Below, piece by piece: positions 3,756 through 57,167 of a stretch of DNA of 59,049 nucleotides. A program made the translations under genes and the position numbers. The notes under the pieces were generated by a model. It was not told where the DNA came from. It saw only the letters and a list, made by a program, of their open reading frames with translations, and made no database searches. The stretch lies in the IMG/VR virus record IMGVR_UViG_3300020048_000003. One strand, given 5' to 3'. The DNA is from a virus. Each line of letters starts with the position of its first letter. Position 1 is the stretch's first letter.

Positions 3756-3774
3756 AAAAAGAAATTAATACAAA

Positions 3775-3806
3775 TAAAAAAAGCCTCAAATTGAGGCTTT
3801 TTTTAT
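3775..3806. terminator. bidirectional intrinsic terminator between convergent genes
   Basis: A-run, GCCTCAAATTGAGGC hairpin (3783-3797), then T7-run. Confidence 0.7.
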
Positions 3807-4135
3807 TTCAGAAAATTAAAATTGTCGTTTAATATTTTATCAATTAATTTTCTTGCTGCGGGATCTCCACTCTGAGCATTCCATTTAGGTAAAGGTAGAT
3901 TTTTTCTTTTACAATATTTTAATAACCAATTAGCGCAATCAATTCCATCTTCATCTGATTGTAAATCAAAATCAAAACATATAGCATCTGGAAGTCCATG
4001 CTCCATAATATATGCTTTGAATTGTTGAGGAGTTTTTGCCCATATGGTATCAAATGGTTTAGGTATTGGACTAAATACCAACCAATCATCCTTTAAAGGA
4101 TTTCTATAATCGTCTAACCAAAGTAGTGTTTTCAT
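3803..4135 (-). CDS. hypothetical protein (110 aa)
   Basis: ORF track; stop immediately followed by terminator. Confidence 0.65.
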   Translation of the reverse strand: MKTLLWLDDYRNPLKDDWLVFSPIPKPFDTIWAKTPQQFKAYIMEHGLPDAICFDFDLQSDEDGIDCANWLLKYCKRKNLPLPKWNAQSGDPAARKLIDKILNDNFNFLK

Positions 4136-4136
4136 T

Positions 4137-4676
4137 TTATTTTTGTTTTTGTTGTTGTAATTTCTGGTGTTGTGATTTCAAATATTTTATTTCTTTCATC
4201 ATTATATTCATTGATTTTTCCAATCTTAAAAGAATTTCATCTTCGTTATCATCATCATCATCTTCATTTATTTCTTCAACATCTTTTTGAATTTCTTCAA
4301 CATCTTTTTGAATATCTTCCATATCCTCTTGAATATCTTCCATGTTTTCTTGGATTTCTTCAACATTTTCTTGGATTTCTTCAACATTTTCTTGGATTTC
4401 TTCAACATCTTCTTGGATATCTTCCTGAAGTTGAGCCATTGTATTAATTTTTTTTGCTTGAATATTCAAACTCATTTGAATAAAAATTGAAAAATAGATT
4501 GCTTCAAGTGAAACTATTGTAGTAAGAGTTAGTAATATTACATCAAATTTAATTCCCATAAAATATAGAATGAATGCGGCTATAAACAATATTGTATGTA
4601 ATATAACCGATTCAATTGAACCCATCCATTTTATAAATTTTAACGCGATTGCCTCTATTCTTTCGTTATTTATCAT
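4137..4676 (-). CDS. membrane protein with two N-terminal TM helices and C-terminal acidic tandem heptad repeat (VEEIQEN)n
   Basis: Hydrophobic N-terminal half; 21-nt DNA tandem repeat encodes EDVEEIQENVEEIQENVEEIQEN... then a D-rich stretch. Confidence 0.7.
   Translation of the reverse strand: MINNERIEAIALKFIKWMGSIESVILHTILFIAAFILYFMGIKFDVILLTLTTIVSLEAIYFSIFIQMSLNIQAKKINTMAQLQEDIQEDVEEIQENVEEIQENVEEIQENMEDIQEDMEDIQKDVEEIQKDVEEINEDDDDDNEDEILLRLEKSMNIMMKEIKYLKSQHQKLQQQKQK
4272..4427. repeat. 21-nt tandem repeat (about 7 copies, ttcttcaacatctttttgaat-like) inside CDS 4137..4676
   Basis: Direct reading of + strand; in-frame heptad coding repeat. Confidence 0.7.
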
Positions 4677-5875: not shown

Positions 5876-5912
5876 TATTTTATTTTATTAAGTCTTCTTA
5901 GTTTTTGTTTTC

Positions 5913-6023
5913 TTATTTTAAGTTTTTCATTTTTTTATATTCTATTAGATATTTAATAGGTAATCCAAAAATTCCTATTAAAGCTAATATCATTAAAATT
6001 AAAATTATACTATCTATGGTCAT
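5913..6023 (-). CDS. hydrophobic 36-aa peptide (MTIDSIILILMILALIGIFGLPIKYLIEYKKMKNLK), below ORF-track size cut-off
   Basis: Manual translation of minus strand; single predicted TM helix; located in otherwise empty 200-nt gap. Confidence 0.3.
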   Translation of the reverse strand: MTIDSIILILMILALIGIFGLPIKYLIEYKKMKNLK

Positions 6024-6082
6024 TCTATATTGATTTAGATTTAGACCACAAAGATAGTATAAATTTTTTAGATAAAAAATTT

Positions 6083-6358: not shown

Positions 6359-6443
6359 AGCTTTTTAAATTTGATTGTTCATATTATATCCTGATACAAA
6401 GATATGAATAAAAAAGATATAAAAAAAATTACGAACAAAATTT

Positions 6444-6480
6444 AAAAAAAAAGATTTTGCTTTCACAAAATCTTAAATTC
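6444..6480. terminator. intrinsic terminator for minus-strand gene 6493..6747
   Basis: AAGATTTTG-CTTTCA-CAAAATCTT hairpin (6451-6474) followed on the minus strand by T9-run. Confidence 0.5.
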
Positions 6481-6492
6481 ATTTTAATGAGA

Positions 6493-12876: not shown

Positions 12877-12916
12877 AATATTTTATATATATAAAAAAAT
12901 AAATATTTATTTTTAG
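12877..12916. promoter_or_regulatory. 40-nt AT-rich divergent intergenic region (candidate promoters for 12876<- and ->12917)
   Basis: Only non-coding spacer between divergently oriented genes; TATATATAAAAAAATAAATATTTATTTTTAG. Confidence 0.3.
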
Positions 12917-15863: not shown

Positions 15864-16214
15864 TTATAAATTATATTTTTTTATATTTATCATAACATCT
15901 AAATTTGAAATAAACTCAAATATCTCTTTATAATTTTTTATTTCAAATTCTTTATCTTTCCAAGCACCACGTTTTGATCCATCTGGATCAACACTTGCAA
16001 TTTTATTCATATAATCAACAATCACTATATCTTCATCATTCCCTTGAAAAAGTATGTATGGTCGTTCATCTGTGTGTCCATGTATAGATTCATAATCAGA
16101 ATAAGTATTATATACATATTTAACATTTAATCCCTTATCTTCTAGATATTTAAGTAATTTTGTTAATTTTGTTTTACCTTTTCTTTTAGTTTCAAATAGT
16201 TTAATATATTTCAT
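15864..16214 (-). CDS. array cassette protein
   Basis: N MKYIKLFETK / C INIKKYNL. Confidence 0.8.
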   Translation of the reverse strand: MKYIKLFETKRKGKTKLTKLLKYLEDKGLNVKYVYNTYSDYESIHGHTDERPYILFQGNDEDIVIVDYMNKIASVDPDGSKRGAWKDKEFEIKNYKEIFEFISNLDVMINIKKYNL

Positions 16215-17932: not shown

Positions 17933-18198
17933 AGGTTATATTTTATTGTATCTATTTCTAATTCAGTTAGTGATCTCAAATCTTCTTTATCAAACCACAT
18001 AGTCCATTCAGATTTTATAAATTGACCTGTAAATTGATCATTTTTATCTATTAAGATATATTGTTCTTTATATTTATCATAAGATCTACCAATTTCAGAC
18101 ACGGTATATATCTTATACAAATTCTTCTCATCACCGATTATTTTTACATAATCACCTTTTTTAAATTTATTATTTTCAAATAGTTTTATATATTTCAT
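17929..18198 (-). CDS. array cassette protein, mini-domain type
   Basis: N MKYIKLFENNKFKKGDYVKII / C EIDTIKYNL. Confidence 0.8.
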   Translation of the reverse strand: MKYIKLFENNKFKKGDYVKIIGDEKNLYKIYTVSEIGRSYDKYKEQYILIDKNDQFTGQFIKSEWTMWFDKEDLRSLTELEIDTIKYNL

Positions 18199-30746: not shown

Positions 30747-30758
30747 ATTCTATATATT

Positions 30759-30792
30759 AAAAAAACCTTTGAAATTTTTCAAAGGCTGTTTC
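30759..30792 (-). terminator. intrinsic terminator inside array (CCTTTGAAATTTTTCAAAGG hairpin + T7)
   Basis: Perfect 8-bp stem 30766-30785 includes stop codon of 30779..31066; minus strand follows with TTTTTTT. Confidence 0.6.
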
Positions 30793-31868: not shown

Positions 31869-32221
31869 AAGTTATATTTATTTGCATTTATTTTTAATTC
31901 TACTTCTTCTATTGTTTTAGCAAAAGCCAATATTTGTGTAAACCTACAAGATTTAGTTCCATTATTAAATAGGCTTTCAAGTTCTTTTGGAATATTAAAA
32001 TATTGCAATTTTACACCTTCACATTTATCATAAGCATCAAATATATATCCTATAACTCTACCACAATTTTTACTCAAAAAATGTAAATACTCTTCACCTA
32101 CTGGTGTATAACTGCGATTATTTCTTTGTTGTTTATTTAGAGGAATAACTTGAACATAATCACCTATATTGGGTATTTTATTTAAAGCCTTAATATCAAA
32201 ATTTTCAAAAATAGTTATCAT
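31865..32221 (-). CDS. array cassette protein
   Basis: N MITIFENFDI / C INANKYNL. Confidence 0.8.
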   Translation of the reverse strand: MITIFENFDIKALNKIPNIGDYVQVIPLNKQQRNNRSYTPVGEEYLHFLSKNCGRVIGYIFDAYDKCEGVKLQYFNIPKELESLFNNGTKSCRFTQILAFAKTIEEVELKINANKYNL

Positions 32222-32505
32222 AGATTATATTTTTTTACGTCTCTTTTGAATATTTTCTTTTCTTGCTTTTTTACAAAATCTCTCATAAATTCTTCTACAT
32301 CACAATCATTTGGTACTACTACTTTTTTTGAATTATCTATTGTTAAAAGTCCACCATCTGTTTTATAAATAATATGTAATTCAATGGTAGGATCATATAG
32401 ATTATATAATTGAACATATATGCCATATTCTCCTTTTTTGATCCAACAGATTTTAATAAATTTATGTGTTCCTATCCAACTATTAATAGTTCTTGGTTTT
32501 TCCAT
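32218..32505 (-). CDS. array cassette C-terminal part (MEKPRTINSW...DVKKYNL); possibly 3' portion of a frameshifted gene
   Basis: Has KYNL end but no family N-tag; overlaps 32472..32663 by 34 nt. Confidence 0.5.
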   Translation of the reverse strand: MEKPRTINSWIGTHKFIKICWIKKGEYGIYVQLYNLYDPTIELHIIYKTDGGLLTIDNSKKVVVPNDCDVEEFMRDFVKKQEKKIFKRDVKKYNL

Positions 32506-32663
32506 CTTAGTGACTTTGTTTCAACTTCTTCTATAGGATGATATTTTTTTAATTCACTCATAACATCATTGTAAAATAGATTACCCCATTCGTTTTTTAA
32601 TCTTTTCTCCTCATCTCGTAATATATCTAATTTATCTATATATTCTCTATATCTATCAATCAT
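32472..32663 (-). CDS. short ORF (63 aa) directly after junction; possibly 5' portion of a frameshifted cassette gene
   Basis: ATG 0 nt after upstream TAA; N MIDRYREY; ends without KYNL inside next ORF. Confidence 0.4.
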   Translation of the reverse strand: MIDRYREYIDKLDILRDEEKRLKNEWGNLFYNDVMSELKKYHPIEEVETKSLRWKNQELLIVG

Positions 32664-32927
32664 TTATAAGTTATATTTTTTAGCATCAATATTCAATAGT
32701 TCAATGTCCCTGTCAATTTTTGATAAATAATCGTTTACATCTTCAAATCCTGTTGCTGGTACTTTTGTTTTCTTATTCATAACTCTTATATACTTACCTA
32801 AATATGATCTATCTATTACCCTATATGCTGTGTATAAATCATTCTTATGATATACAACTTCATTAAGTTCAAATCTATGTTGAATAGGACTCCATTCTCT
32901 AAGTTCAAATAATTTTAAATATTTCAT
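32664..32927 (-). CDS. array cassette protein, first gene after non-coding island
   Basis: N MKYLKLFELRE / C DAKKYNL. Confidence 0.8.
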   Translation of the reverse strand: MKYLKLFELREWSPIQHRFELNEVVYHKNDLYTAYRVIDRSYLGKYIRVMNKKTKVPATGFEDVNDYLSKIDRDIELLNIDAKKYNL

Positions 32928-32965
32928 CCATTATATATAAATTTTTAAAACTTTTTTATTTTTTT

Positions 32966-32984
32966 AACTATACTTAATATAGTT
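32966..32984. promoter_or_regulatory. small hairpin AACTATA-CTTAA-TATAGTT in non-coding island
   Basis: 7-bp inverted repeat read directly. Confidence 0.25.
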
Positions 32985-33020
32985 TTTACGGTTTCTATAA
33001 AAAATTCGTCCATTATAAGT

Positions 33021-33133
33021 TTGTTAGGTTAACAAACTTCCTTTATGAGGTTGTCAGGTGAACAACTTTCCTTTATAAGATTGTCAGGTAACAATTTTCG
33101 TTAGTGTTGTGTTAGTTAACAACTCCGTTTTAA
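33021..33133. repeat. four imperfect 30-bp direct repeats (TTGTyAGGTnAACAAnTTTCC core), iteron-like
   Basis: R1 33021-33050 TTGTTAGGTTAACAAACTTCCTTTATGAGG; R2 33051-33080 TTGTCAGGTGAACAACTTTCCTTTATAAGA; R3 33081-33107; R4 33108-33133; locally higher GC than surroundings. Confidence 0.7.
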
Positions 33134-33160
33134 CTCCGTAAAAGGTAAGTTTTCCGTTAA

Positions 33161-33192
33161 AAACAAAAAGCCACAGAAATGTGGCTTTTTAA
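33161..33192. terminator. intrinsic terminator (GCCACAGAAATGTGGC + T5) after gene 33209..33601
   Basis: 6-bp GC-rich stem 33170-33185 flanked by A-run and T-run; works on both strands. Confidence 0.7.
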
Positions 33193-33208
33193 TTTTAAAT
33201 AATTCAGT

Positions 33209-33601
33209 TTATAAATTGTATTTTGAAGCATCTATTTCATGTTGCTCAACATTAACTAAACCAACAAACATATAACCTCTTTCTTTTAATATTTTTTCAA
33301 ATGAATATGGATGGGGTGTAAAATATGGTCCTTTTATTACTTTATCTCTTAAACTATCATATGTAAATTCAAGACCAACTAAAACAAAATTATCTTTGAA
33401 TTCTTTATCTTCTCTTATATTTTTAGCAAGACCTAATGCTTGATCAATAGGTTCTACTGGATTCTGCCATTCAGTATATTGTTTATATAATCTCACCAAT
33501 CCATCTTCCAATTTATTATTTGTTGGTAATATCCAATATACTTTTCTTGATACAATATCATCTGTATCTCTAAATGCTTCTGTTGTTTTTATGTGTTTCA
33601 T
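33209..33601 (-). CDS. array cassette protein
   Basis: N MKHIKTTEAF / C EIDASKYNL; followed by terminator. Confidence 0.8.
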   Translation of the reverse strand: MKHIKTTEAFRDTDDIVSRKVYWILPTNNKLEDGLVRLYKQYTEWQNPVEPIDQALGLAKNIREDKEFKDNFVLVGLEFTYDSLRDKVIKGPYFTPHPYSFEKILKERGYMFVGLVNVEQHEIDASKYNL

Positions 33602-33894
33602 AAATTATATTTTTTTGTATCTTCAGCCATATCATAAAAATCAATTGCTTCTTTTAATGTATCAAATGTTCCAAGTATATTCATATATCTAATATCACGA
33701 GTTAAATGTCCTAATTTATAATTTGTCCATTTTCCTAACCGCATTACATAATCTAAGCCAACCACAGAAAAATTTTCAAAAACTTCTTTAACATGAGTAA
33801 TATGTAATTTTTTACTATCACCATAATAATAAACAAGATATTTATTTATGATATCACTATATTTTTTATTTTCGTATGTCTTTAAGTGTCTCAT
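33598..33894 (-). CDS. array cassette protein
   Basis: N MRHLKTYENKK / C DTKKYNL. Confidence 0.8.
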   Translation of the reverse strand: MRHLKTYENKKYSDIINKYLVYYYGDSKKLHITHVKEVFENFSVVGLDYVMRLGKWTNYKLGHLTRDIRYMNILGTFDTLKEAIDFYDMAEDTKKYNL

Positions 33895-45550: not shown

Positions 45551-45552
45551 AA

Positions 45553-45855
45553 TTATAAATTGTATTTATTTGCTTGTATTATATATTCTAATTTTTCTTT
45601 GTCTTTTGAGATATATAAAATTTCTTCTCTACCGAACCACATAGGTTGATCATAGGCATCTTCTATATGTTTTGGTACGTTTTCAAATTCAACAACATAT
45701 CTTCTCATAAGAGGTGTGTGTTGAAGTTCAATAACTTTTCCTATTGCACTTGCAAAATAAATATCTAAATCTTTATCAGGATCCTCTAAATTTTGACAAA
45801 TAACATAGTCACCTACTTTTGGATCTTTCTTTTCAAATAATTTTATATATTTCAC
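45553..45855 (-). CDS. array cassette protein, EILYISKDKE subfamily
   Basis: N MKYIKLFEKKDPKVGDYVIC / C YIIQANKYNL. Confidence 0.8.
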   Translation of the reverse strand: MKYIKLFEKKDPKVGDYVICQNLEDPDKDLDIYFASAIGKVIELQHTPLMRRYVVEFENVPKHIEDAYDQPMWFGREEILYISKDKEKLEYIIQANKYNL

Positions 45856-45857
45856 TT

Positions 45858-47997: not shown

Positions 47998-48007
47998 CTA
48001 TCTATAT

Positions 48008-48040
48008 ATAAAAAAACCTTTGAATTTTTTTCAAAGGTTA
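48008..48040 (-). terminator. intrinsic terminator inside array (CCTTTGAATTTTTTTCAAAGG hairpin + T7); near-identical twin of 30766-30785
   Basis: 8-bp stem 48017-48037 overlapping stop of 48031..48387; T-run on minus strand. Confidence 0.6.
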
Positions 48041-57114: not shown

Positions 57115-57167
57115 TAAACAAACATCTATTTTATCTATATATTAAATATAAAAATTAATTTATAAAA
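57115..57167. promoter_or_regulatory. 53-nt AT-rich divergent intergenic region (candidate promoters for array block <-57114 and ->57168)
   Basis: Only spacer between divergent genes; no coding capacity. Confidence 0.3.

Follow-up and report, generated by a model that had tools for sequence, protein, structure and literature searches.

At the lambda origin of replication, four dyad-symmetric repeats adjoin an AT-rich region. Sponge small RNAs of the CsrB/RsmZ type are built from repeated hairpins that carry one conserved purine loop motif, are joined by short linkers and end in an intrinsic terminator. T4-type phages harbor promoter-early stem-loop (PeSL) cassettes in their hyperplastic regions, ~50-60 bp long and present in many copies per genome (PMC2839356, PMC4122927). 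Type III antitoxin RNAs are exemplified by ToxI, AntiQ and CptI (PMC5086642), and phage TE carries a pseudo-ToxI decoy (PMC3475682). Here, we analyze a gene-free island of 281 nt at positions 32928-33208 of a 59,049-nt stretch of viral DNA (IMG/VR record IMGVR_UViG_3300020048_000003; hereafter, the window), which interrupts a long array of small minus-strand genes and contains tandem ~30-nt repeats. An earlier note, made from the sequence of the window, had read these repeats as iterons of a replication origin or as a multi-site platform for a transcriptional regulator. The explanation we favor, tentatively and short of an even chance, is that the island encodes an orphan, lineage-specific small structured RNA transcribed from the + strand, antisense to the array.

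The island is real and non-random. Considering minus-strand open reading frames (ORFs) of at least 60 amino acids (aa), it is the sole gap longer than 100 nt between 13.8 and 57.1 kb, in agreement with its description in the earlier note as the only sizeable non-coding stretch; a second gap, at 45551-45857, is only apparent, and a GTG-start ORF fills the region. The G+C content of the core, 33-35% (95th-98th percentile), exceeds the window mean of 24.5%, as that note had also stated of the local background, and other intergenic DNA of this genome has just 11-20%. The island sequence is identical in three independent assemblies (the window and contigs L004 and L012). Tandem Repeats Finder places a repeat at 33009-33099 (period 30, 3.1 copies, 80% matches, score 108), the best-scoring non-coding repeat in the window; the top-scoring tandem repeat overall is a coding one at 4255-4424 (21 nt x 8, also 84 nt x 1.9), inside gene 4137-4676, which encodes a coiled-coil-like protein. 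Three units, R4, R3 and R2, are invariant in 24 of 32 aligned columns and 77-87% identical to each other. Each is an inverted repeat with a stem of 8-9 bp and a loop of 5-7 nt; across units, loop (AGGT) and linker (CC(T/A)TTAT) stay constant and the stems vary. Where four 30-bp repeats had been counted, ‘three plus a relic’ is the better description: R4, R3 and R2 are good copies, and the fourth, R1, is degenerate, off-register and missed by a covariance model of the 30-bp unit. Two repeats bear GTTAAC as reported, at 33028-33033 and 33115-33120. The features of the island are collected in Table 1.

Table 1. Features of the gene-free island in window coordinates.
Feature	Position	Strand	Remarks
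Promoter-like box TTTATATATAAT	32930-32943	minus	3 nt upstream of ATG 32927
All-AT hairpin AACTATA-CTTAA-TATAGTT, 7 bp	32966-32984		T5 follows on + strand, A-run on minus strand
5' half of 8-bp long-range inverted repeat, TTTTACGG	32984-32991	+	
R4 unit	33010-33039	+	linker CCATTAT; loop AGGTT; perfect 9-bp stem AAGTTTGTT (33017-33025) / AACAAACTT (33031-33039); covariance model 37.5 bits
R3 unit	33040-33069	+	linker CCTTTAT; loop CAGGTGA; stem GAGGTTGT (33047-33054) / ACAACTTT (33062-33069), two G.T; covariance model 48.9 bits
R2 unit	33070-33098	+	linker CCTTTAT; loop CAGGTA; stem AAGATTGT (33077-33084) / ACAATTTT (33091-33098), one G.T; covariance model 33.5 bits
R1, degenerate fourth unit	33099-33129	+	loop GTTAGTTA, 8 nt; stem GTTGT (33106-33110) / ACAAC (33119-33123); spacing 26 nt, off-register
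Three CCGT motifs (AACTCCGT, AACTCCGT, TTTCCGT)	33125, 33136, 33154	+	by sequence inspection
3' half of 8-bp long-range inverted repeat, CCGTAAAA	33136-33143	+	
Bidirectional intrinsic terminator A5-GCCACA-GAAA-TGTGGC-T5	33165-33190	both	11-12 pairs

The substitutions that separate the units preserve base pairing on one strand. Read from the + strand, the stems of R4, R3 and R2 comprise 24 cells (eight stem pairs in each of three units), every one a standard pair: one stem pair occurs as A-U, G-C and U-A, and at two others G-C or A-U alternates with G.U. On the minus strand, the same stems are paired in 21 of 24 cells, with the alternating positions turned into A.C mismatches. In a neutral simulation with 4-6 random stem substitutions, all pairs were retained in 0.07-0.5% of trials. 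The contig L005, a variant of this DNA, differs from the window at only two positions over 629 nt, 33105 T>G and 33123 C>T, and both of these single-nucleotide polymorphisms (SNPs) fall in opposite arms of hairpin R1; they take this hairpin from -4.6 to -5.6 kcal/mol on the + strand and from -3.5 to -2.1 kcal/mol on the minus strand. The per-unit hairpins of R3, R2 and R1 are all more stable on the + strand. There is, in sum, moderate evidence that the maintained property is the formation of hairpins on the + strand. All predicted unit folds are plain hairpins; the sequence would also permit a contact of 2-3 bp between the loop (GG) and the linker (CC).

This pattern of conservation bears directly on the alternative that the repeats work as duplex DNA, namely as an operator or upstream-activator array in which a dimeric regulator sits on three or four dyads, about three helical turns apart, and controls the boundary promoter or promoters. 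Tandem inverted repeats with 30-bp phasing, placed at a unit boundary with a terminator on one side and a promoter-like box on the other, fit such an arrangement, and operator arrays of this kind are a common regulatory design in phages. Nonetheless, one would expect the arms of a symmetric protein operator to stay constant and its center to drift, and the island shows the reverse. Since the asymmetric AGGT center is invariant and the arm changes are either compensatory or to G.T, which breaks the DNA dyad, conservation favors a folded single strand over a symmetric operator; a constant loop and linker combined with variable stems is a signature of RNA modules, unlike symmetric operators. Moreover, the nearest unit lies ~70 bp from the only recognizable box, no second site exists in 59 kb, and a Pfam search of the 148 window ORFs returned only ankyrin, cREC_REC, zinc ribbon and low-complexity matches, with no helix-turn-helix or other DNA-binding domain and no replication domain. 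We consider an operator array fairly unlikely. The regulator platform proposed earlier keeps some probability, but how the repeats are conserved argues against a symmetric DNA operator. Two further DNA-level or coding interpretations of the units were rejected. R4 contains a perfect TAAGTTTG on the + strand, reminiscent of a Bacteroidetes-type promoter (TTTG ... TAnnTTTG), but lacks the -33 element, and mini-ORFs within the repeats (a + strand ORF of 19 codons at 33045-33104 and minus-strand TTG ORFs of three codons) were judged to be side effects of the 30-nt periodicity. A CRISPR-like array was also dismissed, as spacers would have no place within repeats of period 30.

The island marks a boundary between transcription units, because the unit upstream finishes at a strong terminator and the next ATG is preceded by a promoter-like box. 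The terminator begins 17 nt past the stop codon of gene 33209-33601 and was detected on both strands, compared with 0.2 terminator-like sites expected in shuffles; the clean intrinsic terminator previously noticed beside this gene is thereby confirmed. It ends the upstream minus-strand unit and could equally end a + strand transcript of the island. A terminator of the same A/T-flanked type lies at the truly convergent junction 3772-3808. The box 32930-32943 has a palindromic TATATATA core, read as ATTATATATAAA on the + strand. A T-rich tract plus (A)ATATATA(A/G) likewise stands 3-7 nt before the first ATG that follows a gap or terminator, at 12877, 20859, 30747, 38323, 41870 and 47998, as well as before first genes in the related phages L010, L014 and L021, and the divergent intergenic regions 12877-12916 (40 nt) and 57115-57167 (53 nt) contain just one such box each. 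The spacing between box and ATG would fit a -10-like element that drives leaderless messages. The separation of two transcription units, suspected in the earlier note, is thus well founded in a terminator and a TATATATA box, but the boundary is not unique. The array has only three strong minus-strand terminators (48015-48039, 33164-33191 and 30764-30787), and of these three unit boundaries, the island is the only one with ~200 nt between stem-loop and box. At the other two, the box and an ATG come within ~20 nt of the stem-loop, and since both stem-loops lack an upstream A-tract, they are unidirectional. These compact cassettes share one design, a CCTTTGA...TCAAAGG stem-loop followed by T7, ATATATAG, 3-4 nt and ATG, with the box at 30750-30757 in one and at 48002-48009 in the other.

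The closest counterparts of this layout are PeSL cassettes. In both cases, compact modules made of a terminator stem-loop and a promoter (the latter putative here) lie between small orphan genes of a long same-strand array, short conserved sequences occur at gene borders, and there are signs of recombination that yields small circular or duplicated segments, L005 in the present case and PeSL mini-circles in T4-type phages (PMC2839356). The PeSL-like layout is seen at 30764-30787 and 48015-48039 and, split across its two ends, in the island. However, there is no sequence similarity, TATATATA stands in place of a sigma-70 -35/-10 pair, and the island interposes ~200 nt of unique tandem hairpins between stem-loop and box.

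Within the island, the 8-bp inverted repeat TTTTACGG/CCGTAAAA encloses the whole repeat array and forms in the minimum-free-energy fold of either strand; its 3' half is the middle CCGT motif plus AAAA. Neither this bracketing repeat nor the CCGT motifs, the inverted-repeat nature of each unit or the bidirectionality of the terminator figured in the earlier note. The 7-bp-stem hairpin and the AT-rich stretch of the earlier note are also there, the latter extending beyond the AT hairpin down to the start codon at 32927. Given this anatomy, the island can be rationalized as a terminator-promoter boundary cassette of the array with a structured-RNA gene fitted inside. Transcription would start at ~32945, a few bases past the palindromic TATATATA box, or alternatively at ~32981 from a weak sigma-70-like site at 32945-32974. 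The transcript would pass through the AT hairpin, the bracketing helix (32984-32991 / 33136-33143) and three to four 30-nt hairpin modules before stopping at the bidirectional terminator (33190), to yield an RNA of ~210-245 nt. Its modules would all present the same single-stranded loop AGGU and pyrimidine linker CCUUUAU, with a stem sequence free to change. Because every module shows the same loop and linker on a variable stem, the RNA may be a multivalent platform that binds a single kind of partner (protein or complementary RNA) in several copies, and act as a sponge or decoy. We base this reading on the complete pairing of 24/24 stem cells on the + strand, the simulation, the two L005 SNPs, the invariant loop and linker, and the greater stability of the + strand hairpins, and additionally on the symmetric A5/T5 terminator, the palindromic box also found at divergent gene pairs, the high G+C content, and the identity of the three assemblies.

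Several observations weigh against this RNA. All covariation is among three paralogous repeats of one genome, and the shuffle control of the covariation tool was not significant (74/500), a test that has no power with three rows. The energies of the whole region do not separate the strands, with folds of -48.8 kcal/mol (+) and -48.2 kcal/mol (minus) and z-scores of -2.8 and -3.9, respectively. The TATATATA box may instead be a translation signal, its promoter role being conjectural, and sigma-70-like matches were not enriched over shuffles anywhere scanned. The element also stands alone: it has no match in Rfam 15 at gathering thresholds over the whole window and no copy in ~330 kb of related phage loci, and scans for two phased units gave three matches in JGI metagenomes and five in GTDB genomes, all unrelated by composition and context.

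Other searches for relatives gave a consistent picture. A permissive Rfam search of the island returned terminator-driven chance matches only (E > 0.3), the repeat pattern had 0 matches in IMG/VR, and neither the repeat nor an analogous non-coding tandem array is held by any related array or by any of 29 IMG/VR loci that share the gene junction described below. The covariance model and nhmmer detected no second copy of the unit in the 59-kb window, where the next best match (17.6 bits) lies in coding DNA; the further copies that the earlier note had proposed to look for are absent here as from the related loci. With no scattered copies in 59 kb, a dispersed repeat of the repetitive extragenic palindrome (REP)/bacterial interspersed mosaic element (BIME) or miniature inverted-repeat transposable element (MITE) type was rejected. 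Searching for orthologues with the flanking 87-aa and 130-aa proteins recovered the same phage (L004, L005, L012 and L013) or weak, paralogue-level matches only. One hit of the pattern scans, on an AT-rich archaeal contig (L030 6300-6560; metagenome-assembled genome Candidatus Methanorudis spinitermitis, JAITUQ010000039.1), consists of four or five tandem intergenic units of ~26 nt, TTATCTAACGATTGTTAGGTAAGTAG, each with a palindrome; it is unrelated and matched only through a shared TTGTTAGGTAA.

The strand itself leaves room for another RNA-level interpretation, in which the hairpins lie in the 5' leader of the minus-strand unit that begins at 32927, reached by read-through or from an unrecognized promoter, and serve antitermination, processing or mRNA stability. 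Such a leader would run in the orientation of the genes and has the lower fold z-score (-3.9), and RNA-based antitermination is frequent in long phage operons that contain internal terminators. We nevertheless find it improbable, for R3, R2 and R1 in its L005 form all show A.C mismatches when read from the minus strand, and the DNA immediately upstream holds a strong terminator, with no promoter-like box between it and R1.

If the + strand RNA exists, what it may do can be approached by comparison with RNAs of similar build. Like CsrB/RsmZ, the island has repeated hairpins with a conserved loop, short linkers and a terminator at the end; unlike them, its loop is AGGU rather than the GGA of CsrA sites, and it has no Rfam match. 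CsrA is not known to be used in Bacteroidota, the likely host phylum. Complementary RNA was considered as well, and candidate antisense targets of the + strand RNA in the window amount to AT-rich matches of 10-12 nt, at chance level.

Type III antitoxin RNAs offer a second parallel, as they too combine tandem ~30-45-nt units with a Rho-independent terminator on the same strand (here the + strand, ~35 nt past R1). As the island is phage-borne, a decoy for several copies of one RNA-binding protein would be a workable, if speculative, model. Nevertheless, the island units are plain hairpins, 77-87% identical, whereas ToxI and CptI form pseudoknots. Past the terminator there is no toxin gene of the ToxN/AbiQ/CptN type, nor any + strand ORF of at least 40 aa before 33848, and ten neighboring proteins have no PADLOC and no Pfam match. 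With the defining toxin gene absent and the units being plain, divergent hairpins, the island is not a member of the type III toxin-antitoxin loci. A more specific proposal is that of an anti-defence decoy RNA, whose multivalent hairpins would mimic the natural RNA ligand of an RNA-binding immune protein of a Bacteroidota host and thereby sequester that protein early in infection by this ~286-kb phage. Candidates for the imitated ligand are a type III-like antitoxin and a CRISPR repeat; the function would resemble that of pseudo-ToxI or of repeat-mimicking RNA anti-CRISPRs, to which the island is unrelated in sequence and fold. A GTDB scan found no similarity of the units to any host repeat, and we view this version as a long shot.

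The replication origin proposed in the earlier note fares poorly. On this model, the iterons would be initiator binding sites from which the neighboring AT-rich DNA is melted, as happens at lambda ori. The likeness to lambda ori lies in the gross layout only, three or four tandem dyad-symmetric repeats beside AT-rich DNA, and the island-bearing contig L005, from another sample, is compatible with local amplification and does not show it. In contrast to lambda, the island is neither in nor beside an initiator gene and has no replication genes nearby; indeed, the 148 ORFs include no initiator, helicase, primase or other replication domain in Pfam. The cumulative GC skew is monotonic through 33 kb, without an inflection, and gene orientation is unchanged. 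The AT-rich flank is ordinary among the intergenic DNA of this genome and holds the promoter-like box. As to the repeats themselves, the stems covary around a conserved, asymmetric center instead of presenting a fixed recognition sequence, the fourth copy is off-register, and the element is neither repeated elsewhere nor conserved in related phages. An origin is, therefore, very improbable, and the iteron claim is not upheld.

It is also conceivable that the repeats do nothing, being a fragment of a gene end or junction and the neighboring gene start that slipped, was tandemly duplicated and is now decaying, tolerated in a hyperplastic array. The minus-strand 3' part of R4, AACTTATAATG, is identical over 11 nt to the TAATG-type canonical junction at 18198 and 40387, and the next 20 nt beyond R4 agree with the start of the adjacent gene at 17/20 positions (TATAATGGACGAATTTTTTA vs TATAATGGATGAAATATTTA), a score equaled or exceeded in 9/500 shuffles. 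Likewise, the element is missing from related phages, and the region does rearrange, as L005 joins 32621 to 33693. A decaying by-product would not readily account for substitutions that keep pairing, an invariant loop and linker, a raised G+C content and a sequence identical in three samples, so we judge it unlikely. The units may descend from a duplicated gene end or start, which would fit recombination-prone arrays.

The structure of L005 (ENA ERZ27262927 k141_77155; 1,032 bp) deserves a description of its own. It consists of window positions 33034 to 32621 joined to 33693 to 33065, that is, a circular permutation of the 1,073-bp window segment 32621-33693, which comprises the island and its two flanking genes. 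The junction has an 11-nt microhomology, ATTAGATATAT, and the contig ends both lie in 30-bp repeats, exactly one unit apart. L005 could represent a mini-circle, a tandem duplication, heterogeneity in repeat number or an assembly effect.

Should the + strand RNA prove real, it would join a very short list of non-coding RNAs identified in uncultivated huge phages, and it would place a compact multivalent hairpin platform within a giant array of genes of the host-takeover type. Even as no more than a decayed duplication, the island would record how such arrays rearrange. In either case, the island and the cassettes at 30.8 and 48.0 kb provide the first map of how the 50-kb array is divided into transcription units, and the TATATATA box, 4-7 nt before start codons, is the likely promoter of the array for leaderless messages.

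The surrounding array is a more unusual object than the island. It comprises ~130 small minus-strand genes between 3.8 and 57.1 kb, mostly with 4-base overlaps of start and stop codons, and all-against-all BLASTP sorts paralogue families of 43 members, 11 members (ankyrin) and eight members, the last including gene 33209-33601. Between 6083 and 57114, ~125 consecutive small genes encode proteins that nearly all begin with MK(Y/H)(I/L)Kx(F/Y)E (some with MKTYExF or MIKxFE) and nearly all end in (A/N)xKYNL. Because of these shared starts and KYNL ends, the junction DNA AAATATAAYTTATGAAATATATAAAA, 26-35 nt, is kept along 50 kb of array. The N-termini resemble the T4 capsid-targeting sequence MKTYQEFIAE; alternatively, both termini may be constrained by translational re-initiation without a Shine-Dalgarno (SD) sequence, for which the junctions are too tight. 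A literature text search on MKYIK or KYNL found nothing relevant. Directly downstream of the first gene beyond the island, at 32218-32663, ORFs of 63 aa (32472-32663; atypical start MIDRY, no KYNL end) and 95 aa (32218-32505; atypical start MEKPR, KYNL end) overlap by 34 nt and look like a single array gene split by a frameshift; since they are called alike in three independent assemblies, the split is not an error of a single assembly.

The window has no DNA match among 50,697 phage records. Its proteins are part of a 286,618-bp metagenomic contig (whose P0003 and P0004 are window proteins), and near-identical fragments of its DNA occur in ENA samples ERZ27262924 and ERZ27262927 and in Logan SRR7760390. 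A profile of a 39-member family recovered related arrays that share these termini in further large phage contigs of 21-27% G+C, namely L010 (90 kb), L014 (38 kb) and L021 (326 kb), and an IMG/VR scan identified the 29 loci with the conserved gene junction. Some of the latter carry transfer RNA (tRNA) clusters, for instance 19 genes in L039 1717-8367 and seven in L047 1863-2899; the 59-kb window has no tRNA or transfer-messenger RNA genes.

The host is probably a member of the Bacteroidota, judging from the SD-less junctions, the TATCTTTG sites and the matches to Cellulophaga phages. TATCTTTG fits the Bacteroidetes -7 element TAnnTTTG and is found in intergenic DNA at 5876-6082 and 6359-6492 (minus strand) and in the relative L010 at 16088-16170; a window-wide search for the Bacteroidetes promoter with its -33 element was uninformative. 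The Cellulophaga matches come from the minus-strand gene 3803-4135, which encodes a stand-alone cyclic-phosphate-processing receiver domain protein (cREC_REC, E = 3e-16) whose top matches in deposited phages are phi17:2 and phi4:1, at 37% identity. Lastly, at 2104-2617 of the related phage L014 (also in L015-L017), a 118-aa ORF before the array matches only the Cas12f1-like TNB (TnpB C-terminal) domain and is followed by a 157-nt non-coding stretch of 34% G+C that may be a guide-RNA remnant.

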